Assembly (NCBI GenBank): GCA_963716725.1
Contig: CAVQUB010000010.1
Location: 1-64,000 of the forward strand
From: an uncultured delta proteobacterium
GTDB lineage: Bacteria; Myxococcota_A; Polyangia; Polyangiales; Polyangiaceae
Reading direction: 5' to 3'
DNA: 64,000 bases
In this document: piece by piece, positions 21,370 through 54,495 of the stretch
Position numbering within the stretch: the first letter of the stretch is position 1
How the letters are laid out: every line of letters begins with the position of its first letter
Notes under the pieces: model-generated
The model's input: only the letters and a program-made list of their open reading frames with translations
What the model was told of the DNA's origin: nothing
Databases searched by the model: none
Made by a program: the position numbers and the translations under genes

Positions 21370-21465
21370 CGGGAAAGCATGGATCGCCCGGAGTGTCCGC
21401 GTCCAGCACCCCCGTGCCATCTGGCCGCTTCGTCCGCGATCCGGGCAGTGGCCGCGCTCGTCGCG

Positions 21466-31900: not shown

Positions 31901-33408
31901 CAGTGCCCAGCAGGAAGTGGCCGGGAACTGCGAATCTCGAGGTGGCGCACGTCTGGCTGCGCAAGGGGCCGTGGGCCGGCGCGCACGTGCTGGATGAACA
32001 ATCTGCGATCGGGATCTCGAGTCAGCTCGCGTTGCCTGGCAGGGTTCAGGGCAAGCCGCACCGCTTGGTCGCGAACGCAGGCAAGTCGTTCCAAGGGTCC
32101 ATCGTTCTCGGGATGGGGTTCGTGTTGGCTCCGGAGGAGGCGCAAGCGCTGATCCAGAAGGACCAACGGAACAAGGAGGTGCTGTTTCCGTATTTGAATG
32201 GGCAGGATCTGAACTCGAGCCCCGACCAGAGCCCGAGCCGGTGGGTCATCAACTTCCGCGACTGGCCGCTGGATCGGGAGAGCGCGCCTGAGGGATACCG
32301 CGGGCCGGTGGCTGCGGATTTTCCGGATTGCTTGCGGATCGTCGAGGAAAAGGTGAAGCCGGAGCGGGTGACGAATCCGCGCAAGGTACGGCGCGAACGC
32401 TGGTGGCAGTTCGCAGAGCGCGCGCCCGCGCTGTACAAGGCCATCGAGGGGATGGAGCGGGTGCTGGTGCTGTCACTGGTGAACAATCACCTGGCCTTCG
32501 GCTGGGTTCCCTCGGGATGGGTGTTCGCGCACAAGCTTGCGGTGTTTGCGGCGAAAGACGCGGCATTGTTCGCCGTGTTGCAGTCCCATGTGAACTACCA
32601 TTGGGCCTGGGCGCAATGCTCGACGATGAGACGGGACATCAACTACTCGCCGAGCGACGCGTTCGATACGCTTCCCTTCCCGCGGAGAGTCGAAGGTCTC
32701 GCGGACGCTGGCGCGGAATACGAGGCCGCGCGTGGTGCAGCGATGCGTGCGCTTGGGTCGGGTCTGACGTCGACCTACAATAGTCTGCACTCGCCCGATG
32801 TCACTTCTCGCGAAGTTCAAACACTGCGGGACGCCCAGGTTGCCCTGGACGAGCGAATGGCGGTTGCATACGACTGGGCGGACCTGAAGCTCGAACACGG
32901 ATTCCACAGCACGCAGCAGGGCGTGCGGTTCACGATAGCTGACGGGCCACGCCACGAGTTGCTCGATCGCCTGCTCGCCTTGAACCATGAGCGCTACGAA
33001 GAGGAAGGTCGGCAAGGGCTCCATGGCGACGGCACGCCGAAGCCGCGCGGCTCAAGTCCAAAGAGCAAACGCGCCACCCCGAAGCCGAAGCAGCCGGCGC
33101 CTGCCCGCGTTCATCAGATGGGCTTTGGCTTTGGCGACGCGCCGCTTGAGCGCGCCGCGCCGGATGAAGCTGGGGAGTCTTCTACCACCGAAGACGGGCG
33201 GTCCGGCCTCTCGCGCCCGGCCCGCTTGCTGTTGAACGCGTGCGAGAAGGCGGACGCACCTCTAGGGAAGACCTCCCTCCTCGAAACAGCAAAGCTGGAC
33301 GAGAGGGATTGGATCGCTGCGATCCGCGAGCTGCTCGATGCGAAGCTTGTGCGCCAAGAGGGTGGGGGACGGGGGACGAGGTACCTGGTGAAAGGTGACC
33401 GCCGATGA
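28954..33408 (+). CDS. drmMI: DISARM class I adenine methyltransferase (Eco57I/type IIG-like)
   Basis: HHAEWMSLIEVSGPFL, EQIGHVYEGLL, TGTHYTP, DPAMGSGAF, GNPPF; GTGA overlap with drmD. Confidence 0.92.
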   Translation: MSVTRHHAEWMSLIEVSGPFLSMPVLLDVFPDGLDQREDASERREGLHAAHEEWLDDQGGVRPNPAIHQAWVKYVLREVLDLDEALLVGGQALPPSVAVPMPEQGEVLRPTLAVMEPDGRPNAGKPRLLIELLPREQGLERALEGKSWKASPAARMMTLLHGSGARLGLVTNGDLWMLVHAKAGDTTSYVTFHSNLLFDEPLTLRAMESLVGVRRLFNVPDAETLEALFDRSSEAQQELTDQLGYQVRRAVEVLVQSIDRVDRDRQRALLRQVDEKQLYEAACTVMMRLVFLLAAEERRLLLLGDPMYDGNYAISTLRELLQETADKHGKEVLRHRYDAFARLLSTFRAVHAGVRHDRMRLPAYGGSLFDPDRYPFLEGRAPGTGWKSAVASPLPIDNLTVLDLLTAIQVLEVRIGGRPVEARRLSFRALDVEQIGHVYEGLLDHTARRAHSPVVSLSGTKNVEPEVSLDELEAARTKGRVPLVEYLKGVTRKTPAAIERALDYDVPDDEARRLLLACDNARPLYERVKPWAGLVRKDAHELPVVYSQGAVYVTEGLERRATGTHYTPPSLTEPIVRYALEPLVYEGPAQGWDREKWKLRSPRELLSLRICDPAMGSGAFLVQACRYLATRLVEAWEQAEREAGGRLVITPDGDLSQGRASERPLPRDAEERLAIARRTVADRCLFGVDKNPMATEMGKLSLWLVTLQKDRPFTFVDHALRSGDSLLGLTRLEQIEAFHIDPARAVRRDVPLFDPGRVARKAVERAMLLRQKLESFSVESLRDAEEKSRLLAEATAALDDARLIADVVISAALASASRGDRALDTLLEDLVPTVMRAYGDGSKEDQQRDAKEQLRARARELLDEGRGVEHPERTPFHWVLEFPEVLGKAGGGFDAFVGNPPFQGGQRITGALGTDYRDYLVAHTAAGARGSADLCAYFFLRAGRLTRDNGSVGMLATNTIAQGDTREVGLDQLVASGFSIPRAVPSRKWPGTANLEVAHVWLRKGPWAGAHVLDEQSAIGISSQLALPGRVQGKPHRLVANAGKSFQGSIVLGMGFVLAPEEAQALIQKDQRNKEVLFPYLNGQDLNSSPDQSPSRWVINFRDWPLDRESAPEGYRGPVAADFPDCLRIVEEKVKPERVTNPRKVRRERWWQFAERAPALYKAIEGMERVLVLSLVNNHLAFGWVPSGWVFAHKLAVFAAKDAALFAVLQSHVNYHWAWAQCSTMRRDINYSPSDAFDTLPFPRRVEGLADAGAEYEAARGAAMRALGSGLTSTYNSLHSPDVTSREVQTLRDAQVALDERMAVAYDWADLKLEHGFHSTQQGVRFTIADGPRHELLDRLLALNHERYEEEGRQGLHGDGTPKPRGSSPKSKRATPKPKQPAPARVHQMGFGFGDAPLERAAPDEAGESSTTEDGRSGLSRPARLLLNACEKADAPLGKTSLLETAKLDERDWIAAIRELLDAKLVRQEGGGRGTRYLVKGDRR

Positions 33409-34379
33409 GCGTGTGCGTGATCTGCAATCAGATCGAGCCGATGGGTGGCCGCGGAACTCCGAAAGTTCAGGGAATCCCAGGCCGGGACGCCCACACGATC
33501 GAGTGCATTCGATGTGGCAAGTACGACGCCGAGCACAAGCTGCGCCTCGTGTTCCCGCACGGGCTTCCGGCGGATACGGGCCTGGTGCTTTCGTCCCTCG
33601 CGCGAGAAAGAACGACTGCGGGAGAACGTCTCTCATTGACCGTCGCGAACCACAAGGAGTTGGCCAGCACTGCACCGCCGCCGCTCGGGTACTCCGAGAC
33701 CATCGACCGCGTGCTGCTCGCCTTCGCCGATGCCTGCCGCTATCCCGGTTCGTTCACTGGTGCCATGGAAATCGAGCCACTTGCGGCCCGCTTTTGCTTG
33801 CCCTCCACTGCGTTCGCGGACCTGGTTCAATTGCTCAGCACGGACGGCTTGTTGAACGTCGCGAGCCGGGACGCGCTGAGTGTGGGCGTGGGGCTCACGC
33901 CAAAGGGTTGGGAGCGCGTCGATCGCTTGCAATCGGTCGGACCGCGATCCCGGCATGCGTTCGTCGCGATGTGGTTCGATGAACAGGTAAAGGCTGCGTT
34001 TGACGATGGTATTCGGCCTGCGCTGGTGGAGTGTGGCTTCGAATCGCCGTTCCGCGTCGACGAGCTCGAACCCTCGCGTCCCGCGCTGCATGAGCCACGA
34101 ATAGATGATCGGATCATCGCTCGGATTCGGCGTGCACGCATCGTCATCGCGGACGTGACCGGCGCTCGTCCCGCCGTGTACTACGAGGCTGGGTTCGCGG
34201 CGGCGCTCGGGATCCCGGTCATCTGGTGCTGCCGGCGCGATAAGGAAATGACCGACATGTGCTTCGACACGCGGCAATTTGAGCACATTCTGTGGGACTC
34301 GCCGGACCAGCTGAAGGACAGCCTCGTGCAGAAGATCCGAGCCCACGCGTGGGCCGTCCCGGGCGGGGGCAGCGGATGA
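33405..34379 (+). CDS. Zn-ribbon + wHTH + nucleoside 2-deoxyribosyltransferase/TIR-like effector
   Basis: CVIC...CIRC; LTPKGWE; AFVAMWF...IADVTGARPAVYYEAGFA.ALGIPVI...FDTRQ. Confidence 0.8.
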   Translation: MSVCVICNQIEPMGGRGTPKVQGIPGRDAHTIECIRCGKYDAEHKLRLVFPHGLPADTGLVLSSLARERTTAGERLSLTVANHKELASTAPPPLGYSETIDRVLLAFADACRYPGSFTGAMEIEPLAARFCLPSTAFADLVQLLSTDGLLNVASRDALSVGVGLTPKGWERVDRLQSVGPRSRHAFVAMWFDEQVKAAFDDGIRPALVECGFESPFRVDELEPSRPALHEPRIDDRIIARIRRARIVIADVTGARPAVYYEAGFAAALGIPVIWCCRRDKEMTDMCFDTRQFEHILWDSPDQLKDSLVQKIRAHAWAVPGGGSG

Positions 34380-36865
34380 GAGCGGACGCAAACAAAATCG
34401 CTCTTCGCGCCATCCGCTCGGTTCTCGGCGCCGCGCACCCACTCGAGGTCGACATCGGCGGCAGCCGGGTGTCGTGCTCGGTGGCATCCGGGGCGGCACC
34501 GGGCTGGCCCGCGAAGGCGAGCGGAGTGCAGCCCGACGCAGACGGACCTTGGCCGGTTTCCATCGAGGTCCAGTGTAAGTGGACCGGCGGTGCGTGCACG
34601 CTCGTCCTTTCCTGCGAGCCATCGGATCAGCCGCTCTACTCGGGCCAAGTCGCTCTCGTGGCGCGTGTCGGTCCCCAACAGCTCGTCTACTGCAACGTGG
34701 CGAACGACATTTCGGAAGCGGCCGACGGGACCGTGCTTGCCGTTGATGCCTCGGTGTCGAGCAGCAAGCGCACCGACACTGAGCCAATCCGCGCTCTCTT
34801 GAACGCGAGCCTCAAGACGCTCGTGCAGGGCTCTGGCCTACCGATGCTGTCGGATAGCCGAGTCGAGGCGTTCAAGGTTGAAGTTCCCTCGGGCAGCGTG
34901 ACTCCAAGCCCGGAGCAAGCGCTTCGTCGAATCGTCCATCTCGCGCTACTCAAGCTGGACTACTTCGCTCGAGACAGTGCGGCGGGGCGGGGCAAACCAC
35001 TCGTGGACATCGCCGGAGTGCTGTTGGACGCTGGAATTCCCATCTCCAAGGAATCGCTGCTCGAAGAAACACGGGAGGAGGGCCTGCCAGAGCGGAACTA
35101 CTGGGCCGGCGGCTTCCTCTGGGGCACGGGCTCGATGCTGAAGCCGTTCATCGACCAGCGCTTCTGGCAAGTCGGCTGGCCGCGCGGCGCAAAGGACGCC
35201 GCCGCTCGTCAAACCTGGGAGCGCTTCGATCGGATCAAGGTCGGCGACTGGCTGGCGGTCAAAGGCTACGGGGGAACCCACGATCTGGTGATCCATTTCG
35301 TCGGAGAGGTGAAGACCATCGACCGCGACACCGGTCGCGTCGAGTTGGCGCCTGTCCAGGTGCCGCTCTACAAAGACAAGGCGCCGCGCGGCGCGGGTGG
35401 AGGCAACTGGTTCGACACCCTCGTTCCCGTAACGCGGCCCGATGTGATCGAGCTCATCTTCGGCCAGAAGATGGAGGAGCCGGAGAAAGCAGCTCCGATC
35501 GATCTGCCCGTGAACTTGATCTTGTACGGGCCGCCCGGGACGGGGAAGACCTATCGGCTCAGGCAAGAGCTGATGCCGAAGTTCACCCGCCAGATCGGGG
35601 CGGCGCGGTCGACACCCGCCGCGCCGGGATCCGTCGCGGATCTGACGTGGTTCGAGGTCGTCACCATCGCGTTGCACCAGCTCGGTGGCTCGGGCAAGGC
35701 CCAAGCAATTTACCAGCACCCATTGGTCAAGGCCAAGCACGCGGCGCAGGCGGTCCCCACCTTGGCGCGACAGATTGTCTGGGGCTGCCTCCAGTCACAC
35801 ACGGTCGAGTCGAGCAAGACCGTGAACTACAAGAACCGCGTGGGCGACCTGATCTTCGACAAGCGCGAGGACAGCAGCTGGCACTTCGCGGTCGAGCTGC
35901 CTGAGCACCTCGCCGAACTCGTCCGCGAGTTCACGCAAGCGGCCCCCACGGGTGGTCGCATCGAGGACCACGTGTTCGTGACCTTTCACCAGTCGTACTC
36001 GTACGAGGACTTTCTCGAGGGGATCCGCCCGAATCTTGCCGAGGGCGAGCTGGACGGCAGGCTCACCTACGTGCTCGAGCACGGCGTCTTCAAACGCGCC
36101 GTGATCGAGGCGATCCGCCTGACTGGATTCGATGGAACGCTGGACGAGTTTTGCCGACTCCCGGCCGCAGAGCGTAGCAAGCGTCTGGATGGGGCCCCGC
36201 GGTACGCCGTGTTCATCGACGAGATCAACCGCGGCAATGTCGCTCGGGTGTTCGGTGAGCTGATCACGCTGCTCGAGGCGGACAAGCGTTTGGGTGAGGA
36301 GAACGAGCTCATCGTAAAGTTGCCGTATTCACGCACGCTCTTCGGCGTGCCGTCGAACCTCCACGTCATCGGCACCATGAACACCGCGGACCGCAGCGTG
36401 GAGGCGCTCGACACCGCGCTTCGCCGGCGCTTCGCCTTCGAAGAGCTGCCACCAAGGCCGGAGCTTCTGGACTTCATCATCGAGGGGCAGATCGAGCCCA
36501 AGGAAATGCTGCGCGTCATGAATCGGCGCCTGGAGAAGCTGTACGACCGAGACCACGCGATCGGTCACGCCTTCTTTCTGCCGCTCGCCAGCGACCCCAC
36601 CTTAGAAGCCTTGAAGCGTGTGTTCGACCGCCAGGTGCTGCCGCTCTTGCAGGAGTACTTCTTCGGTGACTGGGGCAAAATCGGTCTCGTGCTCGGCGCC
36701 GATTTCGTGAGGCGGCGCGAGGCCGGAATTGCGCGCCTGGCGGAGTTCGCTCACGACGACCGCGAAGCGCTGGAGGAGCGCGTCACCTACGAGCTCACGC
36801 CGGTGAAGGATCTCACCAGTTTGTCGTTCCGGCGGATCTACGAGCATGTCACGGAAGACGCTTAG
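34376..36865 (+). CDS. mcrB: McrB-family AAA+ GTPase (type IV restriction)
   Basis: GPPGTGKT, VTFHQSYSYEDF, DEINRGN, MNTADRS, LRRRF; ATGA overlap with the upstream gene. Confidence 0.93.
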   Translation: MRADANKIALRAIRSVLGAAHPLEVDIGGSRVSCSVASGAAPGWPAKASGVQPDADGPWPVSIEVQCKWTGGACTLVLSCEPSDQPLYSGQVALVARVGPQQLVYCNVANDISEAADGTVLAVDASVSSSKRTDTEPIRALLNASLKTLVQGSGLPMLSDSRVEAFKVEVPSGSVTPSPEQALRRIVHLALLKLDYFARDSAAGRGKPLVDIAGVLLDAGIPISKESLLEETREEGLPERNYWAGGFLWGTGSMLKPFIDQRFWQVGWPRGAKDAAARQTWERFDRIKVGDWLAVKGYGGTHDLVIHFVGEVKTIDRDTGRVELAPVQVPLYKDKAPRGAGGGNWFDTLVPVTRPDVIELIFGQKMEEPEKAAPIDLPVNLILYGPPGTGKTYRLRQELMPKFTRQIGAARSTPAAPGSVADLTWFEVVTIALHQLGGSGKAQAIYQHPLVKAKHAAQAVPTLARQIVWGCLQSHTVESSKTVNYKNRVGDLIFDKREDSSWHFAVELPEHLAELVREFTQAAPTGGRIEDHVFVTFHQSYSYEDFLEGIRPNLAEGELDGRLTYVLEHGVFKRAVIEAIRLTGFDGTLDEFCRLPAAERSKRLDGAPRYAVFIDEINRGNVARVFGELITLLEADKRLGEENELIVKLPYSRTLFGVPSNLHVIGTMNTADRSVEALDTALRRRFAFEELPPRPELLDFIIEGQIEPKEMLRVMNRRLEKLYDRDHAIGHAFFLPLASDPTLEALKRVFDRQVLPLLQEYFFGDWGKIGLVLGADFVRRREAGIARLAEFAHDDREALEERVTYELTPVKDLTSLSFRRIYEHVTEDA

Positions 36866-38138
36866 AGCCTTCGAGCACCAAACGGTCCGCGTCGGCGAGT
36901 CTTTGCCGCGAGCGGAGGGGGGTAGTCTAGAGCTCAGCCAGCGACAGCTCGATGCCCTCGCGCGCTTCAACGACGCCCACGCCGGCAAGTACTTCCGAGT
37001 GGGGTACCGGAAGCTCACGTTTCGGCACTTCGTCGGCTTCCTCCAGGTGGGCGACCTGGGCATCGAGGTGCTCCCGAAGGCCGATCGGATGGCCGCAAAT
37101 AGCGACGAGGCGTTGCGCTGGCGAGGCGCGCTGCTCGAAATGCTCCGCGTGGCGACCGGGCTCCGCTTGCACAGCCCGACTGACTCACTCCAAACGCTCG
37201 GGCGGTCGAGACTGCTCGATCTGGTGGCGCTTCGCTTCGTGGAAGAGCTCGAGCGTCTGCTCCACGACGGCTTGGCCAAGGGCTACCGCGCCGAGGAGGC
37301 GAACGGTCCCCGGTTCAAGGGGCGGCTCCTGGTCGCCGAGAACCTCCGCGAAAACCTGGTTCGCGCGGACCGCTTCTACGTCCGTTTTACGACCTACGAC
37401 CAGGACATCCCGCCCAACCGTGTCCTCGGGACCGCGCTCGATGTGCTCGACGAGCTGCCGTTGGGCTCGTCGCTCAGCGGTCGCGTGACGCGCGCGCGCG
37501 GCATCTTCCCCGCTCTGTCTGCGTTGCGGGTCACGCCGGGATTGTTCGACCGGCTGGCGTCGACCCGTTCGACGGCGCGCTATCGCGATGCGCTGCTGTT
37601 CGCTCGCATGATCCTCGAGCAGCAGGTCCCTGAGCTTCGCGCCGGGGCCGTTCCCGTGTTCGCATTGCTGTTCGACATGAACAGCCTTTGGGAACGCTAC
37701 ATCGCCGTGCTCTTCCGTCGGGCTTGCCCGCCCGGGTTCGAGGTCAGCACCCAGGAGGCACGGCGGTTCTGGAAGCGCAGCGAGTCGCCCGCCAAGACCG
37801 TGCGGCCCGATCTGGTTGTTCGTCGCGTGGGCGATGCGGATGCGCTCCTCATCGCAGACACGAAGTGGAAGGTTCTCGACGATCCGACACCGGGCGACGC
37901 CGACCTCCAGCAGATGTTCGTGTACAACGAGCTCTTCGGCGCCCCCCGCGCGCTGCTTCTCTATCCGCGGATCGGGATCGGAAGCGGCGAAGCCGCCGGT
38001 CGCTTCGTGGCGCGGGACCACGGCTGCGATGTCGTCGAACTCGGGCTTTTCGGCGTGAAGGGGATCGCGACCTCGAAAGTGGTCGCGGAGATCCGCGCCT
38101 TGTTGGAGCGGCACGCTGCGGCGGGCGCGGCGGCGTGA
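36846..38138 (+). CDS. mcrC: McrC-family PD-(D/E)xK nuclease
   Basis: IEVLPK, LFDMNSLWERY, RPDL, IADTKWK, DLQQMFVY, LLYP. Confidence 0.92.
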   Translation: MSRKTLRAFEHQTVRVGESLPRAEGGSLELSQRQLDALARFNDAHAGKYFRVGYRKLTFRHFVGFLQVGDLGIEVLPKADRMAANSDEALRWRGALLEMLRVATGLRLHSPTDSLQTLGRSRLLDLVALRFVEELERLLHDGLAKGYRAEEANGPRFKGRLLVAENLRENLVRADRFYVRFTTYDQDIPPNRVLGTALDVLDELPLGSSLSGRVTRARGIFPALSALRVTPGLFDRLASTRSTARYRDALLFARMILEQQVPELRAGAVPVFALLFDMNSLWERYIAVLFRRACPPGFEVSTQEARRFWKRSESPAKTVRPDLVVRRVGDADALLIADTKWKVLDDPTPGDADLQQMFVYNELFGAPRALLLYPRIGIGSGEAAGRFVARDHGCDVVELGLFGVKGIATSKVVAEIRALLERHAAAGAAA

Positions 38139-38358
38139 GACCGCACGACGACAGCTCGACTGCGTCTACGCGTCCCGAGGGCTGGCTCCCGGGATCACGG
38201 CGGTCGCCGAACCGGCCAGAAGAGTGGGGTCCAGCGACCGCTGCCCGATCTCGATCGAGCTGCACTGGCCGGCGCGGCAGCGTGGTAGCCTGCCGTTGCT
38301 CATGCCGGGGATACGAGCGATGCTTCACACTAGAGAGTCCACCGAGGTCGGTTCGAGG

Positions 38359-38976
38359 ATGCAGAGCAGCGCTGTGGCCCAAGCGTCGGACGTGTACTTC
38401 TCGGCGGACGTCGAGACGGACGGACCGATCCCCGGCCCCTTCTCGATGCTTTCGTTCGCATTGGTCTTGGCAGGGACTTTCGACGGCCGGGCGTTCTCTC
38501 GCGCGACGCAAGCCGCGCACTTCTACAAAGAATTGAAGCCGATCAGCGATGAGTTCGAGGAGGAAGCGCTCGCGGTGAATCGGCTCGACCGCAACCGCCT
38601 GATCGTGCAGGGCGCGTCGCCGGCCGAGGCGATGTCCGAGGCCGCTCGCTGGGTCCGGCAGGTCGCGGGCAACGGCACACCTGTACTAGTGGCGTATCCG
38701 CTCGCGTTCGATTGGACGTGGCTCTACTGGTACTTCGTCCGATTCTCGGAATCGGGGTCACCGTTCAATCATTCGCGCTGCTACGACCTGAAGACGGCGT
38801 TCGCTGTCAAAGGGGGTCGCCTGGTGTCTCGGGCAGGGCGTGACGAGCTGCCAGAAGAGCTGCGGTCTTCGGTCGCGCATACGCACCACGCCCTAGAGGA
38901 TGCGCAAGAACAGGCCGATATCTTCGCGAAGATCTTCGAGTGGGGCGGGGATGAACACAGACGAGTTTCTGGCTGA
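38359..38976 (+). CDS. DEDDh 3'-5' exonuclease (DnaQ-like)
   Basis: ExoI SADVETDGP, ExoII AFDW, ExoIII HHALEDA. Confidence 0.88.
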   Translation: MQSSAVAQASDVYFSADVETDGPIPGPFSMLSFALVLAGTFDGRAFSRATQAAHFYKELKPISDEFEEEALAVNRLDRNRLIVQGASPAEAMSEAARWVRQVAGNGTPVLVAYPLAFDWTWLYWYFVRFSESGSPFNHSRCYDLKTAFAVKGGRLVSRAGRDELPEELRSSVAHTHHALEDAQEQADIFAKIFEWGGDEHRRVSG

Positions 38977-40006
38977 ACGGCGCAAGAAATCCGACGAACG
39001 GCTGGCGAAGTTTCGAGCCGTTTTGCGCAGCGAAATTCCTCCCAAAGAACGGAAGGAAGTCCTCGGGGATCACACCTGCATCTACGCGGTCGGCTCCGGA
39101 GGCCGGGGCGAGCTTTCCAAGCGGAGCGACCTCGACGTCTTTCTGGTCACGACCGGGGAGGTGAAGCGCATCAACGAAGTGCGCTTGCAAACGGCCATGC
39201 TGCGGGCCATGCGCAAGGTGAAGTTCCCTGACCCGTCGAACGACGCCAGCTTCGTGAGATTGCACGCGGCGCAAACGCTGATCGAACGCCTCGGCGAGCC
39301 TGCGGACGACGCCGAAAATACCTTCACCGTTCGGATGTTGTTGCTCCTCGAGAGCAAAGCGGTCGCGGGCAATGAAGTGCACTCGGCCCTGCTCGACCGC
39401 GCGCTGGAAGCTTATTGGAAGAACGCAGAGGGTCACGAGACCGACTATCTGCCCATCATTCTTCTGAATGACATCATCCGTTATTGGCGGATCTTGCTGT
39501 TGAACTACGAATCGAAGACGGCGAGCAAGGAGCGGGAGTTGGCGCGGGACTCCGCGTCGTCGAAGCGGATCCCGCAGGCTCGCCTTCAGGCCGACCGCTG
39601 GTTGCGGAGCTACAAGCTCCGGTTCAGTCGATGCCTCATGTGCTATTCGAGCGTGTGCTACCTGCTCGCATGCGCCCACCGGAGCAGCGCCCGCACCGGC
39701 ACCGCTTGTGTGACAATGGCTGATGTCCGCAGAATGGTGCGGCTCGTCCCCCTCGAACGCCTCGCTCAAGCGTTGAGGTGGACACGCGGCATTGACGGTA
39801 CGGGCGAAATCGGAGCCCGCCTTCGGACGTTGTACGCGCGATTCCTCAAAACGGGGGAGCGAGAGAAGGAGGCGCTGCTCGAGGCGTTTGCCCCGCCCAA
39901 GAAGGGCGAACACATGCGTGCGGCGGAGGAATTTGGTCAACAGATGTACGAGCTTGTCGAGTTGATCGGTCAGGGCAACCCGCTCCACCGCTACGTCGTG
40001 GTCTAG
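38951..40006 (+). CDS. Pol-beta superfamily nucleotidyltransferase, HalB-like candidate
   Basis: GSGGRGE....SDLD signature; RMLLLLES, LNDIIRYWR, KLRFSR; ends HRYVVV*; overlaps the exonuclease gene by 26 bp. Confidence 0.85.
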   Translation: MNTDEFLAERRKKSDERLAKFRAVLRSEIPPKERKEVLGDHTCIYAVGSGGRGELSKRSDLDVFLVTTGEVKRINEVRLQTAMLRAMRKVKFPDPSNDASFVRLHAAQTLIERLGEPADDAENTFTVRMLLLLESKAVAGNEVHSALLDRALEAYWKNAEGHETDYLPIILLNDIIRYWRILLLNYESKTASKERELARDSASSKRIPQARLQADRWLRSYKLRFSRCLMCYSSVCYLLACAHRSSARTGTACVTMADVRRMVRLVPLERLAQALRWTRGIDGTGEIGARLRTLYARFLKTGEREKEALLEAFAPPKKGEHMRAAEEFGQQMYELVELIGQGNPLHRYVVV

Positions 40007-40015
40007 GACGCGCCG

Positions 40016-42112
40016 ATGGCCGACGGCTGGCTTCTCACCATCAAACCGAGCTTTCTGCACGAGCTCGTGGCGCTCCCGGCGAAGGAGGGGGCGCAGGTTC
40101 AGAAGAAGCTCGAGCTGCTCACTGCGGATCCGCGTCCCGACGCGAAGGTCAAAAAGCAGCTGAAGCACATGGACGGGCGCCTCCATCGGATCCGCTCCGG
40201 TGACTACCGGATTCTCTACACCTTCGATGACCGCTATGTCAGCGTGCTCGCGCTGCGCAAACGTGATGAGCAGACCTACGCGGCGACACCCGAGGCAGAG
40301 TCTCTCGGTGCGGGCGATGTCTCCGGGATACACGACTCGCCGGCAGCGGCGGCGAACGTCGACGCTTGGCTCGAAGCCAATCCGCATCCAAAGCCGAAGG
40401 CACTGCCTCGACTCATCACCGGCGAGCTGCTCGAAGCGCTTCGTGTCCCCGCCGAGCATCACGCGCGCTTGCTGGCGATCCGCACCGAGGACGAGCTTCT
40501 CGACTGCGCCGAAGTCCCGGAGAAAATCCTAGAAAGGGTGCTCGACGGCGTGGTCGACCGGCCGCTCGATGACGTGGCGCGCCAGCCCGACCTCGTCATC
40601 GAGAGCACCGACGACTTGCTTCGCTACCGGCAGGGCGAGCTAATTGGTTTCTTGCTGCGCCTGAACCCCGAGCAAGAAAAGTTCGTCACGTGGTCGATTA
40701 GCGCGCGTGGCCCGACATTGTTGAAGGGCGGGCCTGGGACCGGTAAGAGCACGGTCGCATTGCACCGCGTGCGCGTCGTGCTGGATGCCCTGCGCGAGAC
40801 CGGCGTGGAGCAGCCGAGGATTCTGTTCACGACCTACACCAACGCCTTGGTGCGCTACTCGGAGCAGTTGCTTCGCTCGCTTTTGGGCGAAGATGTTGCG
40901 TGCGTCGAGGTCCGGACGGCCGACAGTGTCGCCATCGGCATCGCGCGGCGTGCAGGGGAAGAGCCACATTTGCTCGATGGCGGCGACCTTCGCAGCCTCG
41001 CGGAGCGCGCGCTGCGCGAGGTCAAGTTCGAAGGCAATGCCCTGGCTCAGAGGGCTCAGCGCGCGACGCTCGATCGCCTCGGCGTCGACTACGTTCTGGA
41101 AGAGATGCTCGACCTGATTGATGGTCGGGGCCTGCGCTCACTGGACGAGTACCTCGCCGCGCCACGCCCGGGCCGCGAGATGCCGCTCAATCGTACTCAG
41201 CGCGAGGCGGTTTGGCGCACGCATGCCAAGCTGCACGAGCTCATCGATGCGTCCCGCCGGACCACTTGGGCGGACGTGCGCTTGGCGGCGCTCAGCGCGC
41301 TGACCGACGGCCGGGTCAACGACCCATACGACGCAGTGCTGGTCGACGAGGCGCAGGATCTCTCCCCGTCCGCACTCGAAATCCTGGTGCGCTCGTGCCG
41401 CGAGCCGAATCGGCTGTTCCTCACCGCTGACGCGAATCAGTCCATCTATGGGGCGGGCTTTCGCTGGTCGGACGTGCACGAGTGGCTGAAGTTCCAAGGC
41501 CGCACCGGCGTGCTTCGGGCGAACCATCGGAGCACGCGCGAGATTGGTGAGGCTGCGGAATCCTTCCTGGCCGCCGGCGCGCTCGACGCGGAGCGGCAGG
41601 AGCCGGCGTACGTTCACTCGGGCCCTTTGCCGGCGGTCCGGGCGGTGGCGAGTGCCTACGACGAGGTCCAGCTCGTCGCGCGGTTTTTCCGCGGCGCGGT
41701 GCGAGACTTGCGCCTCGGGCTGTCGGCCTGCGCTGTCCTCTGCCCGACGAATACTGCCGCGCAGCGCGTGGCGGCCGAGCTAAATGGTCTCGGCATCGCG
41801 GCCCGCTTCATGTCGGCGAAAGAACTGGACGTTGGTGCTGCCGAGGTGAAGACGCTCACCTTGAAGTCCGCCAAAGGCCTCGAGTTCCCGGTCGTCGCGC
41901 TGGCCGGGTTTCTCGATGCGCCGTTTCCGCTCGTGCCTAAAGGCGCGACGGATGAGGCGCGCAAGGAAGTGGAAGAGCGCGAACGGCGGACGCTCTACGT
42001 TGCCATGAGCCGAGCGATGCGCGCGCTCTTGGTCGTCGAGCCCGACGAGCAGAGGTGCGGCCTGCTCGCGGGCTTTGACTCGAACCGATGGAATTTGGGA
42101 GTGGCTTCATGA
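40016..42112 (+). CDS. RelE/ParE-like domain fused to a UvrD-type SF1 helicase
   Basis: N-terminal KQLK...LHRIRSGDYRILY; GGPGTGKS, LVDEAQD, DANQSIY, NHRS, KSAKGLEF, LYVAMSRA. Confidence 0.88.
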   Translation: MADGWLLTIKPSFLHELVALPAKEGAQVQKKLELLTADPRPDAKVKKQLKHMDGRLHRIRSGDYRILYTFDDRYVSVLALRKRDEQTYAATPEAESLGAGDVSGIHDSPAAAANVDAWLEANPHPKPKALPRLITGELLEALRVPAEHHARLLAIRTEDELLDCAEVPEKILERVLDGVVDRPLDDVARQPDLVIESTDDLLRYRQGELIGFLLRLNPEQEKFVTWSISARGPTLLKGGPGTGKSTVALHRVRVVLDALRETGVEQPRILFTTYTNALVRYSEQLLRSLLGEDVACVEVRTADSVAIGIARRAGEEPHLLDGGDLRSLAERALREVKFEGNALAQRAQRATLDRLGVDYVLEEMLDLIDGRGLRSLDEYLAAPRPGREMPLNRTQREAVWRTHAKLHELIDASRRTTWADVRLAALSALTDGRVNDPYDAVLVDEAQDLSPSALEILVRSCREPNRLFLTADANQSIYGAGFRWSDVHEWLKFQGRTGVLRANHRSTREIGEAAESFLAAGALDAERQEPAYVHSGPLPAVRAVASAYDEVQLVARFFRGAVRDLRLGLSACAVLCPTNTAAQRVAAELNGLGIAARFMSAKELDVGAAEVKTLTLKSAKGLEFPVVALAGFLDAPFPLVPKGATDEARKEVEERERRTLYVAMSRAMRALLVVEPDEQRCGLLAGFDSNRWNLGVAS

Positions 42113-45100
42113 GTGAGAGTCCTGAGCGTATCGTCCTGTCGGGCGAGCTGACTGACGTAGGCTACGCCGAGCAGCTATCGGCGAGACTTCGTGCCGGCGC
42201 GTGCGAACTCGATTGGAGCGCAGTTACGCGGGTGACCGATCAGTTCGCGGATGCGCTCGTCACAGGACTCCGTGTCGACGACGTAGCGGACTCCATCGGC
42301 ACGAGCACGATGCGCGATGACCTTTCCGAGGTTCTGGGCGCCGCGTTCGAGCGAGCGCCTCACAGCCGAAGCCCCGGTGCCAGGGCTCGAACGAAGACGG
42401 CCAAGGACGATTCGGTTGCCGTCTGGTCCGCGCCGGCAGAAGCGGAGCCGCCTCCGAGCAGATCGCCGTCGTCTCCGGCTTCACGCCGGTCGCCGCGCCG
42501 CGCGCCGGTCCTCGTCACCGACGTTCCGTCTCCGGAAAAGTTGCGTGCGATGCTCGAGGAGCGTGTCGTCGCCGATCTCATGGGTCCAGCGGGTGGCCCA
42601 GACGAGGAGATCGTCGAGGGCAGCGTTCGCGACCGCTACTTGGTGGGCATGCTGGCGCCGCGGCGGGTGCGCATTGAACCGGAAGAAGTCGACGGCGTGG
42701 AAGCGGAGGAAGGCGCCGGGACCGACGACGGCGCCGGAGACTCGGGCACGATTTCTACGCCGACGATGTTTCCTTCGGCGGTTGGCTTGAGCTTCGTTGT
42801 TGGTGCCGACGCGCCCCCGCTGAAGGTCACGGCGCGTTGGGGTCGTTACCAGCGCCTTCCGAGTGAATCCGTGACCACCGAAACGGGAAAACCGCGACTC
42901 GTGTGGAAGCGCAACTCGATCGCAGCGGAGGTCGTCATTGAGGGCCTTCGCGAGGGCGCGTTGGGGCCGTTCCGAGTTGGCGGCGATCCCGACGACGTCG
43001 AAGCGCCAGCGCAGGTGCGAGGCATTGTCCGGCGGATCGGCGACGGGTTCGTCATCAGTCTCTTCCTGGTGAACAACCAGGACGAGCCCGAGGAGCGTCG
43101 CGACGCAGCATGGCTGTTTCAGCCGGAACTCAGCGTGGCCGCAATGGACGGGAGTGCGGTCTTTCTGTCACGGGCATTGGGCCAGTCCCCATCCACTGAG
43201 CTGGAGCCGCTCGCGGAGGACCGGCCGCTGGCGATGCTCTATCGCGATCGGCGTGAGCTCGCCGTCGGTCATGGCGCTGGCGTTCACGTCGACGCGGATC
43301 CGGCCGACCCACGCCGCGGTGTTCGCGTGGCGACCCGCGTGGTGCCCGCATCCGACGTGCTCCAACAGACGCCGCCGACCGTCGCAGAGGAGCCGCTCCT
43401 GGCCCAGATCGCGCACGACATGAAGGTGCTCGCGGACGCTACGCCTGCGGAGTTGATCGAACGGTTGCGAGAACTGCCGGATGCTTACGCGGCTTGGATT
43501 GCGGAGCAGCGCAAGCGCATCGGCGACCAGGCCTCGCGCTTGGAGGGGTTTGAAGGCGAGGCCAACGCGGCCCTCGATCAATGTGAGGCGACGCTGCTGC
43601 GGATGAGAGAAGGGCTCCACACGCTCGAGAACGATTCAAGAGCCAACGAGGCGTTCCGCTTCGCGAATCGGACGATGTGGCTTCAGCGCGTCCATACCGT
43701 GCTGGCTGAAGAGCGACGCCGAGGCAAGGACACGAAGCTCGTGGACGTCGACGTCCCCGAGAACCGTACCTGGCGTACCTTTCAGCTCGCGTTCATCCTC
43801 GTGAGCCTCGCGAGCGTAACGCGCCTCGATCACCCCGATCGCAATCACGCCACCGACGCCATCGCGGATCTGCTGTGGTTCCCCACCGGTGGCGGAAAGA
43901 CGGAGGCGTACCTCGGCCTGGCCGCGTACACGCTCGGGCTCCGGCGCCTTCAAGGCACCATCGAGGGAAGGTCGAGCGAGCACGGTGTGGCGGTCCTCAT
44001 GCGCTACACGCTGCGACTGCTGACCCTGCAGCAGTTCCAACGTGCCGCCGCGCTCATCTGCGCCTGCGAGTTACTCCGCTCGGAAGCCGAGCAGAGCGGT
44101 AACCCGATTTGGGGGCGCGAGCCGTTTCGAATCGGCCTTTGGGTCGGCGCGCGCAGCACACCCAACAAGACCGAGCACGCCGCCGAGGTGCTCAAACGCA
44201 CCCGCGATATTGGCTTCCGCCAAGGCAGCCGTGTGGGCGGCATGGGATCGCCCGTGCAGCTCAAGTCCTGCCCCTGGTGCGGGTCGGTGATCGAGCCTGG
44301 GCGCCACATGCGGGTCGAGTCCTTCGCCAGCGGCGCCGGGCGCACACTCATCTATTGCGGTGATCGGCTCGGAACGTGTCCCTTCTCACAGCGTCAGGCG
44401 CCCACCGAGGGACTGCCCGTGTTGGTCGTGGACGAAGAGATTTATCGTCGGCTTCCGTCGCTTCTCATTGCGACCGTAGACAAGTTCGCGCAGATGCCAT
44501 GGAACGGCGCGGTTCAGATGCTCTTCGGCCGCGTTCAGAGCCATTGCGACCGGCACGGGTTTGCGGCGCCCGAGTTGCGCGACACCGATCACAAGCGGCG
44601 TGGCGCCTTTCCCGCGACCAAGCTTCGCGATCACGATCCAGTCCGCCCGCCGGATTTGATCATTCAAGACGAGCTGCACCTAATCAGCGGGCCGCTCGGC
44701 ACGCTCACCGGACTGTACGAGGCCGCAGTGGACGCGCTGTGCGCCTGGACGGTGAATGGGCAAGTGGTGCGACCCAAAGTGATCGCTTCGACGGCGACGA
44801 TCCGGCGCGCGCGTCAGCAGATCCACGCCCTGTTTTTGCGCAAGGTCGAGGTCTTTCCACCACAGGGCCTCGACGCAGGAGACAACTTCTTCGCGCGACA
44901 GCGCCCGATCACGGAGCTAGCCGGGCGCCGCTACATCGGCATCTGCGCGCCGGGACGAAGGCTGAAGGCCGTCATCATGCGCGTCTACGTTGCATTATTG
45001 GCGGCGGCCGAGAGCCTCTACCAAACGTATGGCAAGCACGCTGATCCGTGGATGACCCTGGTGGGCTACTTCAGCTCGCTACGCGAGCTCGCCGGCACGC

Positions 45101-45990
45101 GGCGCCTCGTCGACGATGACATCTCGAACCGCGTGAAGAAGATGGATCGGCGCGGCCTCGCCAGCCGATACCTTTGGAGCCCGGAAGAGCTCACGTCGCG
45201 GCTCGACTCGACACAAATCCCCGAGCTGCTCGATCGCCTGGAAATCCCCTTCGATCCTGCCGAAGAAGACGACCGCAGTCGGCGCCGCCCGATCGACGTC
45301 CTATTGGCGACCAACATGGTTTCGGTCGGCGTCGACGTGCAGCGGCTCGGGTTGATGGTCGTGTCGGCCAGCCCAAGAACACCGCCGAGTACATCCAGGC
45401 CACGAGCCGCGTCGGCCGAGCGGCACCGGGCCTCGTCTGCACGATCTTCAACTGGGCACGGCCGCGCGACCTCTCGCACTACGAGACTTTCGAGCACTAC
45501 CACGAGACCTTCTACAACCAAGTCGAAGCGCTGATCGGTCACCCCGTTCGCCGCGCGCGCGCTCGACCGCGGTCTGAGCGCCGTGCTGGTATCACTCCTC
45601 CGCCTCACGCACGATCGACTCAATCCCAATGAGGCCGCCGCGCGCCTGACTCGTGACGACTCGCTCGTGAATGCCGCGCTCGACGCCATCGTGGCCCGTG
45701 CCGCGCGGGTAGAAAACAGCCAGGAGGTCGGCGAAGCGGTGCGTCGGTTGCTCGAGCGGCGTCTGGATGAATGGCTGGCCGATGCCGAGCCCAGGCCCGG
45801 CGGCGCCACCTTGTCGTACAAGGCGAAGCGCGACGGGACGTCTCGCCCCTTGCTCAAGCGCTCGGGTGCGGGGCCATGGGAGACGTTTACTTGCTTGAGC
45901 TCCTTGCGGGACGTCGAGCCCAGCGTCGACCTCGTTTTGACCGAGGGTAACCTGGACGACGACACGCGGCCGTTCACGAGGAAGTCGTAA
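42109..45990 (+). CDS. drmA: DISARM helicase DrmA (two compensating frameshifts near 45365 and 45533)
   Basis: RDRYLVGML, LLWFPTGGGKTEAY, IQDELHLISGPLG, ATNMVSVGVDV; QPKNTAEYIQATSRVGR lies in a shifted frame; frame is regained at SVTPF...LRDVE. Confidence 0.88.
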
Positions 45991-47837
45991 TGACGAAGGC
46001 GCGCCTCGGCGAGCTTCGCCCGAGTCAGCTGCTCTACACCTACGGTGTCGGCGCAGTGGTGGACTTGCCGCACCTGTCCGTCATGGTGATGGGCATCGAG
46101 GATTGGGACGTGAACTACACGCGGCCGATCAACGAAGCGCGGCTGCTCGACCAAGTGCAACGGCGGCTCGGTCGTCAGGTCTCGAGCCTCCGGACGCCGC
46201 CGATGCGCGACGACGAGTCGGAAGGGTTCTTTGTGGCCCAGGACGACCACAACGCGGTCGGTGTTCCGGTAGCGTCCTTCCCGCGCTGGCTGCGTTGCCC
46301 AGCCTGTGAACTGCTCGCGCCCATCGGGTCCGGGCTCTTCCGCTTGCGCACTGTTCCTGCTCGGCCGGACCTCGCCAAGTACGTGCATAGCGGTTGCAAC
46401 CGTCGCCGCGAGCCAGCGGTTCTTCCGTCGCGCTTTCTGCTGGCGTGTGAGTCAGGGCATCTCGACGATTTTCCGTGGCATTGGTTCGTACACAGGGGCA
46501 AACCGTCCGACTGTCGCGGTCATCTCGAGTTGCGCGAGCTCGGCGTCTCGGGCGAAGCCGCCGACGTCGAGGTGCGGTGCCGCAACTGCGACGCCACCCG
46601 TCGCATGGTTGACGCCTTCGGGCGCGAAGGCCTCGCCAACCTCCCTGCCTGTCGTGGCCGCCGCCCACAGCTTCGCGACTTCGAGGACGAGCCGTGCGCG
46701 GCAGACCCCCGTACGATCTTGCTCGGCGCCTCGAACAGTTGGTTTCCAGTCACTCTCTCGACCCTGTTCGTCCCGTCTGCCGCGAAGGATGAACTCGGCG
46801 CGCTACTCCAAGAACACGCGACGCGGTTTGCGGGCATCGAAGACGTGGGCACCGTTCGCTATCTCCGGATGCAGGGGCTGATCGGTGCTTTCGCGAAGTA
46901 CACGGACGATCAGATTTGGGCAGGCCTGAATGCGCAGAAGGCCGCGGGCGAGGACGCCTCTGAGCAGGAAGACCTGAAGGAGCCCGAGTGGCGCGTGCTT
47001 TCGCGTCCTGATCCAGAGCTCAACGGCGCGGACTTTCAGCTCAGCGTGGTTCCGGTTCCTCGCAGCTACGCGCACTTCATCGAGAGCGTCGTCCTGGCCG
47101 AGCGCCTCAGGGCGGTTACTGCGCTGATCGGCTTCACGCGCATCGCATCCCCTCGAGACTTCGAGGAAGATGACGAGAGTCGCGGGAGCGTGGTCGCCAA
47201 GCTCGCGCGCGGCGAACCGCAGTTCGTCCCTGCGTCGGAAGTCCGCGGCGAAGGGGTCTTCATCCGCTTCCGCGAAGAGCAGATCGCCGGTTGGGTCGCT
47301 TCCCAGGCAGCCTGGGAAGACCGCTTCCGCGACGCTCATTTCGCCTGGCGGCGCCGTCGTTACATCGATCCGCCAGACGGTGGATTCCCTGGCATCCGGT
47401 TCATCCTGCTTCACTCGTTCGCCCACGCCTTGATGCGCGAGCTCGTGCTCGAGTGCGGCTACGGCGCGGCTAGCGTGCGTGAGCGAATCTACGCGCGCGA
47501 ACCCGAGGGCGACAAGCCGGCTATGGCCGGCGTCCTCATCTACACCGCCGCCCCGGACGCGGAGGGCACGCTGGGCGGCCTGGTCCGATTGGGCACGCCG
47601 GATGAGCTGGAGCGTCACATTCGACGAGCGCTTGAAGCGATGGCGCTCTGCTCTTCGGACCCGCTCTGCGCGGACCACGCCCCCGACGCGGACGGCGCGA
47701 CGCTCCACGGCGCGTCCTGTCACGCCTGTCTGTTCGCGCCGGAGACCTCATGCGAACGCGGCAACAAGTACCTGGACCGCACGACGTTGGTCGCCACCGT
47801 CTGCTCCGGCGAGCACGCATTCTTCTCGGGAAAATGA
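45990..47837 (+). CDS. drmB: DISARM DUF1998 protein DrmB
   Basis: LRPSQLLYTYGVGA, CESGHLDDFPW, LLHSFAHALM, CSSDPLC, CHACLFAPETSCE. Confidence 0.95.
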   Translation: MTKARLGELRPSQLLYTYGVGAVVDLPHLSVMVMGIEDWDVNYTRPINEARLLDQVQRRLGRQVSSLRTPPMRDDESEGFFVAQDDHNAVGVPVASFPRWLRCPACELLAPIGSGLFRLRTVPARPDLAKYVHSGCNRRREPAVLPSRFLLACESGHLDDFPWHWFVHRGKPSDCRGHLELRELGVSGEAADVEVRCRNCDATRRMVDAFGREGLANLPACRGRRPQLRDFEDEPCAADPRTILLGASNSWFPVTLSTLFVPSAAKDELGALLQEHATRFAGIEDVGTVRYLRMQGLIGAFAKYTDDQIWAGLNAQKAAGEDASEQEDLKEPEWRVLSRPDPELNGADFQLSVVPVPRSYAHFIESVVLAERLRAVTALIGFTRIASPRDFEEDDESRGSVVAKLARGEPQFVPASEVRGEGVFIRFREEQIAGWVASQAAWEDRFRDAHFAWRRRRYIDPPDGGFPGIRFILLHSFAHALMRELVLECGYGAASVRERIYAREPEGDKPAMAGVLIYTAAPDAEGTLGGLVRLGTPDELERHIRRALEAMALCSSDPLCADHAPDADGATLHGASCHACLFAPETSCERGNKYLDRTTLVATVCSGEHAFFSGK

Positions 47838-47838
47838 C

Positions 47839-54444: not shown

Positions 54445-54495
54445 CGGGTTGGTGTGCCCGGGACGGACCCGGGCCGACACCGAAAGAGAACTCCG

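Follow-up and report, generated by a model that had tools for sequence, protein, structure and literature searches.

What would a nucleotidyltransferase (NTase) and an exonuclease do together when their overlapping genes lie side by side within a bacterial defence array? This question is raised by a stretch of 64,000 nt from an uncultured delta proteobacterium of the family Polyangiaceae (assembly GCA_963716725.1, contig CAVQUB010000010.1, positions 1 to 64,000 of the forward strand; G+C 0.66), hereafter referred to as the window. Behind mcrC and ahead of drmA, the window carries three tightly linked genes, encoding a DEDDh exonuclease, a Pol-beta-superfamily NTase, and a fusion of a RelE-like domain with a UvrD-type helicase (RelE-UvrD). 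An original prediction, made from the window's sequence, had proposed that the three genes form a writer/eraser/reader circuit resembling the Hailong system. The analysis described here instead points to a two-gene module. We tentatively read the exonuclease and the NTase as a writer/eraser pair, at somewhat less than even confidence, in which the NTase would make a phosphodiester-linked, probably 2′-5′-linked product and its partner would degrade that product.

All three are real genes rather than chance open reading frames (ORFs), because the G+C content at third codon positions is 0.77–0.80 in the three of them and homologues are numerous (378 for the NTase at E ≤ 1e-3 and 1661 for the RelE-UvrD helicase). 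The closest source-named homologues of the NTase are from Polyangiaceae; the nearest relatives overall are metagenomic, P0002 for the NTase (79% identity) and P0122 and P0123 for the helicase (84–85%). The exonuclease and NTase genes overlap by 26 nt, the NTase gene is separated from the RelE-UvrD gene by 9 bp, and the latter overlaps the start of drmA by 25 nt. The anatomy originally described, including the 220-bp gap behind mcrC and the coupling to drmA, was reproduced exactly in coordinates and spacings.

The Exonuclease Belongs to the Cap18 Family

The exonuclease is a member of the Cap18 family of CBASS (antiphage signalling based on cyclic oligonucleotides), Cap18 ranking first both by sequence and by structure. 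Along its entire length, the protein fits the CBASS model PDLC00753 of PADLOC ("Effector, Exonuclease") at E 2.3e-35, and in a sequence search of the PDB the entry 7t2s ("E. coli upec-117 Cap18 3′-5′ exonuclease") is found at E 6.4e-20, against 2e-4 for RNase T. An AlphaFold2 model with a mean predicted local distance difference test score (pLDDT) of 92.2 likewise has 7t2s as its top Foldseek match (E 8.2e-16; template modelling [TM] score 0.78/0.90), followed by RNase T as the second-best fold relative (TM 0.67). The original DEDDh assignment is borne out: D17, E19, D118, H176, and D181 are all present and are invariant in 30 of 30 exonuclease relatives from the NTase loci described below, as are a GP motif (P23) and an SPF motif (F136). 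The Pro and Phe of these motifs, mapped by eye on the alignment with 7t2s, correspond to P15 and F120 of the Vibrio cholerae enzyme (VcExo) as numbered in a 2026 preprint on CBASS Exo/Cap18 enzymes (bioRxiv 10.1101/2025.03.04.641389). According to that preprint, Exo/Cap18 homologues from three species prefer 2′-5′ over 3′-5′ phosphodiester bonds, they degrade 2′-5′ oligo-A and the linear pppA[2′-5′]pG intermediate of cGAS-like enzymes, and this degradation sets the activation threshold in CBASS; for the Serratia marcescens Exo, the sole enzyme assayed there on longer substrates, activity against ordinary DNA or RNA was undetectable.

The window pair invites comparison with CBASS, with which it shares not only the exonuclease family, its DEDDh residues, and the GP and PF motifs, but also the placement of a small hydrolase gene beside a gene for a Pol-beta-superfamily NTase. 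By contrast, the partner NTase is not a CD-NTase, being an enzyme of GlnE/DrrA-like fold instead, and neither a CBASS effector nor a Cap2/HORMA-type regulator is adjacent to the window pair.

Family and Predicted Fold of the NTase

The motif G48-S49...R52-x-E54...S59-D60-x-D62 and the C-terminal HRYVVV, both noted originally, are read in the 351-residue ORF. Each of the residues G48, S49, R52, E54, S59, D60, and D62 is conserved in 119 or 120 of 120 homologues, and the same holds for D119, D120, E134, N173, D174, R177, Y178, W179, K222, and R227; the invariant motifs specific to the family are DD119-120, LLLES, and ND..RYWR together with K222 and R227. Its placement in known families is less direct. 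Pfam matches are marginal (NTP_transf_2, E 3.9e-4; DUF294, E 9.4e-4), NCBIfam gives weak matches only, to the N-terminus of GlnD, and the sole PADLOC matches are PDC-M70A (103 bits, E 4.2e-30) and PDC-S09, with no "Cyclase" model at E ≤ 0.01. An AlphaFold2 model built from 30 homologues (pLDDT 93.4, predicted TM score 0.92) finds as its best PDB match by Foldseek the Legionella AMPylase DrrA (6yx5_B, E 6.8e-4, TM 0.42). Further matches are ANT(3″)(9), both adenylyltransferase domains of GlnE (1v4a, 3k7d), AadA, and kanamycin nucleotidyltransferase; no cGAS or DncV chain is found among ranks 1–50. A protein atlas gave clusters of SidM_N/DUF294 and class I adenylate cyclases at scores of 0.82–0.83, values that, below 0.9, count as leads only. 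At the level of its predicted fold, the NTase would thus group with GlnD/GlnE-type enzymes, in a loose assignment. With GlnE, GlnD, DrrA (SidM), and the aminoglycoside nucleotidyltransferases (ANT), its best structural matches, it shares an NTase core followed by a helical domain; the regulatory or substrate-binding domains of GlnE and GlnD are absent from it.

The nearest catalogued relative is the PADLOC candidate system PDC-M70, which has a similar two-gene arrangement of an NTase and a small enzyme. The window NTase is probably a distant relative of PDC-M70A and not a clear member: its 103 bits, and the 70–115 bits of 14 other members of the family, compare with 487–495 bits for members on rhizobial plasmids, and it is 24–29% identical to plasmid PDC-M70A members (tblastn). 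The partners also differ, PDC-M70B being a protein of ~240 residues as opposed to the DEDDh enzyme of the window pair. Neither the window exonuclease nor any of 16 tested 2H partners (see below) matches a PDC-M70B model, and one of two PDC-M70B copies tested has a match to the AP_endonuc_2 TIM barrel at the Pfam cut-off (31.2 vs. 31.1 bits). True PDC-M70 pairs were located on rhizobial plasmids (L082:5049-6736 and L083:5034-6739), and a 4.5-kb plasmid of E. coli carries an intermediate NTase relative (L081:711-1706; PDC-M70A, 182 bits) with no annotated partner.

Two further identities were considered and rejected, namely the RNA-repair NTase RlaP, given no Pfam match to PF10127, and CloB of Clover, whose partner is an HD dNTPase; the window pair has no such enzyme. 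A tblastn search of a phage record collection gave no match to the NTase, and its model matched nothing among predicted viral structures at E ≤ 0.001; there is therefore no sign that the NTase is a phage counter-defence gene.

Pairing, Partner Exchange, and Fusions Across NTase Loci

A pattern scan of one genome per species (185,579) yielded 411 loci with NTase relatives, and the best 80 of the 411 were analysed, with ORFs called by a home-made longest-ORF heuristic. A homologue of the window exonuclease directly adjoins the NTase in 43 of the 80 (tblastn), lying upstream and co-directional in 35 and divergent in eight; the divergent loci are all in Solirubrobacterales/-aceae, Thermoleophilaceae, or Patulibacter records. 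In 27 other loci of the 80, the gene immediately 3′ of the NTase encodes a 2H phosphoesterase of ~200 residues with two HxT motifs, detected with a hidden Markov model of the partner. Each His and each Thr of the two motifs is found in no fewer than 90% of 17 partner sequences; Pfam 2_5_RNA_ligase2 is above its cut-off in one of four partners tested and sub-threshold in three, and a profile of the partner finds nothing significant in the PDB, the best match being LigT-like PH0099 at E 0.55. No other neighbour family recurs in more than two of the 80 loci.

Partner type follows the NTase phylogeny. In a FastTree tree of 78 NTases (leaving out L029, L031, L046, L054, and L075, which are short matches, and L080, which has an internal stop), the 25 rows linked to 2H require a single change and the 41 rows linked to the exonuclease fall into two clades, with partnerless rows nested among the latter; partner labels change eight times on the tree, compared with 32 times in shuffles.

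Gene fusions also occur. The 2H domain is fused to an N6-adenine methyltransferase or a type IIG enzyme in four loci (L040:958-3102, L051:8894-11161, L055:8889-11120, and L071:8982-12731), and a similarly long ORF with a 2H match is present in L072:8948-11263; these fusions appear to link the module to methylation-based defence. Furthermore, profile searches for the NTase returned 418, 1477, and 2138 clusters at 50% identity for E ≤ 1e-30, 1e-10, and 1e-3, respectively, and the exhaustive profile search contained three longer forms of the NTase; a word-index search, which is weak evidence, gave none. Among these is a metagenomic exonuclease–NTase fusion (P0355, 548 residues; P0373, 689 residues) whose N-terminal, Cap18-like exonuclease part is 56% identical to that of the window in P0355. 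The other fusion, likewise metagenomic, is of TIR–NTase type and known from a single sequence (P0356, 494 residues; N-terminal Pfam TIR_2, E 7.2e-21).

The adjacency counts and the exonuclease–NTase fusion support a genuine, conserved functional pair, which would make up a self-contained two-gene module. Prediction of a complex between the two proteins from alignments A1 and A2 gave a score of 0.00, which has no bearing either way on binding. Two additional partner candidates were rejected. The gene 3′ of the orphan NTases in L001 and L003, considered as a fourth type of eraser, encodes a Cys-rich, probably secreted protein with no enzyme match; and a HAD hydrolase 5′ of the NTase in L005 and L006 was not counted as a partner class, the two NTases being identical and hence one observation.

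A Proposed Writer/Eraser Pair

The 2H superfamily includes 2′-5′ phosphodiesterases, cyclic phosphodiesterases, and the 3′ trimmer USB1. The common ground of Cap18-type DEDDh enzymes and 2H enzymes is the hydrolysis of unusual phosphodiesters at ribose 2′/3′ positions, and since these two partners alternate beside one NTase family, we infer that the NTase product is phosphodiester-linked and most likely 2′-5′. Also in favour of this reading, both enzymes retain their catalytic residues, and the distant relative PDC-M70A is paired with yet a third type of protein. According to the proposed mechanism, the NTase would use nucleoside triphosphates (NTPs) to make such a product, most likely a short 2′-5′-linked oligonucleotide or a 2′-linked nucleotide adduct. 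The Cap18-family phosphodiesterase would hydrolyse it and hold its level below a threshold, as Cap18/Exo is reported to do for CD-NTases in CBASS, and the 2H phosphoesterase would take over the eraser role in other lineages. As output, the pair might act on an effector whose gene lies elsewhere, nucleotidylate a target, or consume NTPs in a make-and-break cycle. The threshold logic, a phage-defence role, and the target of the product are our inference.

A defence role of the pair is plausible. The pair lies within a DISARM (defence island system linked to restriction–modification) and McrBC array here, LmuB adjoins it in L016, its distribution is sporadic, fusions to methyltransferases and to TIR occur, and a distant relative is listed as the PADLOC candidate PDC-M70.

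Several observations weigh against the writer/eraser reading. Neither partner is found in 10 of the 80 loci, two of which (L011 and L029) are cut at a contig end, and the partnerless loci include L001–L003, the nearest relatives of the window NTase in the tree. Two of these partnerless NTases (P0009 and P0019, from L001 and L003) retain the invariant catalytic residues in alignment A1, so an eraser partner can be dispensed with. Nor does any sensor or effector gene accompany the pair in a conserved way in the 80 loci. The exonuclease–NTase fusion amounts to a single sequence, its two records being identical over 548 residues, and it might have arisen through a frameshift in assembly. As regards the exonuclease, the motif before the second catalytic Asp has a Pro in place of the Asn of 7t2s, which by-eye mapping equates with the ribose-contacting N97 of VcExo in the preprint; this Pro is invariant in the clade of the window exonuclease under the same mapping, and because of it the substrate may differ from that of CBASS Exo. 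As regards the NTase, the fold assignment is loose because TM scores are low (about 0.3–0.43), at 11–12% identity to GlnE, GlnD, DrrA, and ANT, and these closest folds, DrrA, GlnE, and ANT, nucleotidylate hydroxyls on proteins or small molecules rather than synthesising oligonucleotides. It is the partner families, and they only, that point to a 2′-5′ linkage. The defence context is also modest. A PADLOC scan of neighbours within 3.5 kb covered 95 of 110 candidates of at least 200 residues (15 small ones were left out) in 39 loci; 11 proteins in 10 of these loci match at E ≤ 1e-10 and 29 loci have no match. Specific defence neighbours occur in only six of the 39, namely a DpdJ-like protein (L002), PglX (L037), a PrimPol/type IV-like protein (L048), a type I restriction endonuclease (L054), a methyltransferase (L069), and a CBASS cyclase with TGT (L070). 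The remaining matches are Ser/Thr kinases (L017, L028, and L057) and an RtcR-like activator (L014).

Alternative Explanations

A type IV-like toxin–antitoxin system is a serious alternative, because the closest folds of the NTase are the hydroxyl AMPylators DrrA, GlnE, and ANT, and we regard it as unlikely overall while giving it real weight. Here the NTase would be a toxin that nucleotidylates the 3′ end of tRNA or other RNA, in the manner of MenT/AbiEii, or a hydroxyl group on a protein, in the manner of DrrA and GlnE; its partner, whether exonuclease or 2H enzyme, would be the enzymatic antitoxin that removes the adduct, and phage infection would tip the balance. Two small genes overlapping by 26 nt and a natural exonuclease–NTase fusion suit such a system, and an interchange of unrelated phosphodiesterase families as partner is what would be expected if their job is to undo a phosphodiester adduct. 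On the other hand, eight partnerless loci are not cut at a contig end, and orphan NTases that retain their catalytic residues (P0009 and P0019) argue against a constitutively toxic NTase. Furthermore, no match of the NTase to DUF1814/AbiEii or MenT was found in Pfam, PADLOC, or Foldseek, and the three CBASS relatives of the exonuclease preferred 2′-5′ dinucleotides, the one enzyme assayed on longer substrates showing no activity on DNA or RNA, according to the preprint cited above.

RNA 3′-end tailing and trimming in housekeeping or stress, or RNA repair, is an improbable explanation. The NTase would tail RNA, its partner would trim or heal it (the exonuclease in the way of RNase T, the 2H enzyme in the way of the deadenylase USB1 or of a cyclic phosphodiesterase), and the position in a defence island would be incidental. 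The structural kinship with RNase T fits this explanation, as does a match of the exonuclease at the Pfam cut-off of Rv2179c-like 3′-5′ exoribonuclease; trimming of non-templated RNA tails has been described for DEDD as well as 2H enzymes (PMC10493513), and the 29 of 39 surveyed loci whose neighbours have no PADLOC match agree with it too. However, the exonuclease is far closer to Cap18 than to RNase T in both comparisons given above (E 6.4e-20 vs. 2e-4; TM 0.90 vs. 0.67), 411 loci in 185,579 species genomes is a sporadic distribution, and the neighbours in the 80 loci include no recurrent gene for an RNA ligase, a kinase, or RtcB-type repair. The location inside DISARM here, the 2H–methyltransferase fusions, and the TIR–NTase fusion also speak against an incidental association with defence.

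The Hailong-like circuit originally proposed, in which a HalB-like NTase makes Tyr-primed oligo-dA, the exonuclease trims it, and an ssDNA-binding UvrD helicase gates the RelE toxin domain, is contradicted on its three specific points and can hardly be correct, even though the three genes are tightly linked, with 9 bp between the last two, no transmembrane effector is nearby, and NTase-based systems with inhibitory signals do exist (Hailong and Clover). First, the likeness to HalB is of the generic Pol-beta kind: by Foldseek, 9dbj_A ranks 33rd, behind DrrA, GlnE, and ANT enzymes (E 0.048, TM 0.19/0.28; 9dbi_A, E 0.16), and the family profile matches HalB at E 0.94–0.98 over profile positions 44–70 only, that is, the 27 residues of a generic GS...DxD motif. 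Second, priming from a C-terminal Tyr is not supported as a family feature: counted from the C-terminus, position four is most often Tyr (70 of 120 homologues), but it is His in 27, Trp in 10, Phe in seven, and another residue or a gap in six, and the motif around it, L-[FY]-R-x-[MLV]-V-V, seems structural. Third, the RelE-UvrD reader does not accompany the NTase elsewhere, as set out in the next section. Hailong and the window pair have in common that a Pol-beta-superfamily NTase is encoded in a defence island, as well as the idea of a constitutive nucleotide product turned over by an exonuclease; according to a review (PMC13434031), the exonuclease that degrades the Hailong signal is phage-encoded. 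Unlike the 351-residue window NTase with its extra helical domain, the HalB chains in the PDB have 218–237 residues, and a HalA-like membrane protein is absent from the window array. No third gene that could be a HalA-type or other effector recurs in the 80 loci, whose neighbours are unscanned for transmembrane content. The window pair is neither a Hailong subtype nor part of a three-gene circuit.

The RelE-UvrD Fusion and the Surrounding DISARM Operon

The fusion itself was described correctly: residues 16–90 of the protein match Pfam ParE_toxin (E 8.6e-5, just above the cut-off) and Gp49 (4.6e-4), and UvrD-helicase (2.7e-21) and UvrD_C (1.2e-18) domains follow. Against PADLOC, GajB models match down to E 9.6e-23, and NERD+UvrD models match as well. 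The family, of ~700 residues, is large and well conserved, with members from Chloroflexia, cyanobacteria, and myxobacteria at 50–64% identity among the matches listed, and many homologues carry the name "SF1 helicase / RelE" in one public source. None of the 80 NTase loci has a RelE-UvrD fusion near the NTase, two having a weak match to the helicase core alone. Plasmid-borne relatives, 33–35% identical, are found in other defence operons that contain neither exonuclease nor NTase. One, on a Pseudanabaena plasmid, is part of a DISARM/Druantia-like operon: a DrmD-like helicase is encoded upstream, a DrmMI-like methylase gene comes before it, and the gene of a DruE-like helicase of the YprA family, with which it shares a 4-bp overlap, comes after it. 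Another, on a Deinococcus plasmid, lies inside a BREX (bacteriophage exclusion) operon, between brxC and pglX. Because of this absence from the 80 loci and of these relatives in DISARM-like and BREX operons without the pair, RelE-UvrD is not supported as the reader or effector of the pair. Of the proposed writer/eraser/reader circuit, the conserved exonuclease–NTase pair (adjacent in 43 of 80 loci, with one fusion) stood, and the reader did not; largely, the findings are those that the original prediction had itself set against the circuit, an NTase that folds like the GlnD/GlnE type and a RelE-UvrD that does not co-occur with the pair.

On the simplest reading, RelE-UvrD is an ArmD-like accessory of DISARM/ARMADA-type machinery and stands outside the pair. 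The likeness is to the published description: according to a 2025 preprint (bioRxiv 10.1101/2025.09.15.676423), ArmD of ARMADA type II joins an N-terminal RelE-like domain to a UvrD helicase of GajB type, and DISARM-like cassettes are often associated with McrBC. Set against that description, the window array has all three of the further kinds of gene, namely those for an SNF2-type helicase, for a methyltransferase of the PglX/DrmMI kind, and for a YprA-family helicase. It is unlike ARMADA type II in that its YprA-family helicase is of the split DISARM form (DrmA, DrmB, and the PLD protein DrmC), and in that the RelE-UvrD gene precedes this helicase, which it follows in the strict order published.

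The window contains the DISARM class 1 set, comprising an SNF2 helicase in the DrmD position (by Pfam only), DrmMI, DrmA, DrmB, and DrmC (Table 1), and the exonuclease–NTase pair is a passenger cassette inside this class 1 DISARM operon, the order from the SNF2 helicase being DrmMI, TIR-like protein, McrB, McrC, exonuclease, NTase, RelE-UvrD, DrmA, DrmB, and DrmC. All listed array genes are on the + strand. A crude Kyte–Doolittle scan found no transmembrane-like segment in the 13 proteins encoded between 25673 and 50377 (highest 19-residue mean, 1.55), in agreement with the original remark that no membrane protein is adjacent. Between 33000 and 46500, a scan for the sigma-70 consensus found no promoter-like site, and 11 terminator-like sites, against 8.5 ± 3.3 in shuffles, represent no excess.

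Table 1. Genes and intergenic region of the DISARM array in the window, with proposed roles where given.
Feature	Position	Strand	Remark
SNF2 helicase, DrmD position	25673-28957	+	Pfam only
DrmMI	28954-33408	+	PADLOC, 1796 bits
324-aa protein with TIR / nucleoside 2-deoxyribosyltransferase-like C-terminus	33405-34379	+	
McrB	34292-36865	+	
McrC	36846-38138	+	
220-bp intergenic gap, mcrC to exonuclease gene	38139-38358		May hold an internal promoter of the pair
Cap18-family DEDDh exonuclease/phosphodiesterase, 205 aa, ATG start	38359-38976	+	Proposed eraser
Pol-beta-superfamily NTase, 351 aa, helical C-terminal domain	38951-40006	+	Proposed writer
RelE/ParE-like + UvrD (GajB-like) helicase fusion, 698 aa	40016-42112	+	
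DrmA	42088-45534	+	PADLOC, E 1.2e-263
DrmB (DUF1998/MZB)	45990-47837	+	PADLOC, E 1.8e-78
DrmC (PLD)	ORF 47479-48636	+	PADLOC, E 7e-68; match from residue ~122, probable start near 47840
Ser/Thr kinase	48629-50377	+	Overlaps the end of drmC

Two genes of the array deserve separate mention. In drmA, two compensating frameshifts are seen in the region 45340-45600: the PADLOC DrmA alignments end at residue 1098, a different frame, from ~45365 on, encodes helicase motif VI (GQPKNTAEYIQATSRVGR), and past ~45535 reading returns to the first frame, with a further ORF at 45583-45990. These frameshifts represent either an assembly error or a disabled DISARM helicase. The TIR-like protein is encoded between drmMI, which its gene overlaps by 4 nt, and mcrB; its C-terminal part matches Pfam Nuc_deoxyrib_tr (E 8.7e-7), and the protein matches the PADLOC CBASS model "Effector TIR" at E 1.4e-12. 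The gene is notable given the TIR–NTase fusion P0356. It is separated from the pair by mcrBC, and a counterpart of the protein was found in none of the 80 NTase loci.

Novelty and Implications

Writer/eraser logic based on nucleotides is known from CBASS; what would be new here is a different, uncharacterised writer NTase. A description of the NTase family, or of its pairing with Cap18-like or 2H enzymes, was not found in the literature, nor was any mention of "PDC-M70", subscription papers and supplements lying outside the search. The family extends across Myxococcota, Acidobacteriota, Actinomycetota, Bacteroidota, and Proteobacteria, with roughly 400–2000 protein clusters. If the writer/eraser reading is true, Cap18, recently reported as a 2′-5′-specific eraser, would not be confined to CBASS and would serve an unrelated NTase family, more enzymes than now known would count as writers of nucleotide immune signals, and a 2′-5′-linked product would be a cheap biochemical hypothesis for the whole NTase family. 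In a bolder form, which we consider speculative and rather unlikely to hold in full, the NTase family would be a second, non-CD-NTase lineage of bacterial 2′-5′ oligonucleotide or dinucleotide synthases, each with its own 2′-5′ eraser (Cap18-like or 2H). The module would then be a portable, threshold-controlled immune device plugging into methylation-based defence (DISARM here, BREX in L037, and the type IIG methyltransferase fusions), and its output would be an effector elsewhere or NTP depletion by make-and-break.

Irrespective of the product, a mis-annotation is corrected, RelE-UvrD being a component of DISARM/ARMADA type and not the reader of an NTase signal; and unrelated defence cassettes (the TIR-like gene, McrBC, and the exonuclease–NTase pair) can nest in a single DISARM operon. 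A separate observation concerns a metagenome-assembled genome of Solirubrobacterales, in which an exonuclease/NTase pair is followed, ~2.4 kb downstream, by a CBASS-like cyclase gene (L070:11400-13369, − strand; PADLOC Cyclase, E 6.6e-99) and a TGT gene, and a Cap18-like gene is therefore near two different NTases there.

Other Features of the Window

The kinase at the end of the array matches the PADLOC kinase models of mad6 and PD-T4-6 at E 3.9e-34; its defence link is uncertain because myxobacteria encode many kinases. Just upstream of the SNF2 helicase gene, a run of genes on the − strand (20665-25492), possibly another conflict or signalling system, encodes a 455-residue protein whose diadenylate cyclase (DAC) domain is of the DisA type (E 5.6e-9), a radical SAM protein, a 446-residue protein without a Pfam match, and a DUF433/HTH protein. 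Downstream, three co-directional ORFs of 612, 175, and 805 residues on the − strand (50404-55206) have high G+C at third codon positions, and Pfam yields nothing for them at E ≤ 1e-4; after them comes the gene for an AAA_22 ATPase (55900-56697, + strand), and this could be another uncharacterised system. Finally, the segments 2797-4089, 8852-10261, and 11025-18779 hold two transposase genes (rve integrase and DDE_Tnp_1), a gene for a 1736-residue RHS/teneurin YD-shell protein, and a second YD-shell fragment; the transposases and YD-shell proteins fit a mobile, conflict-rich region.

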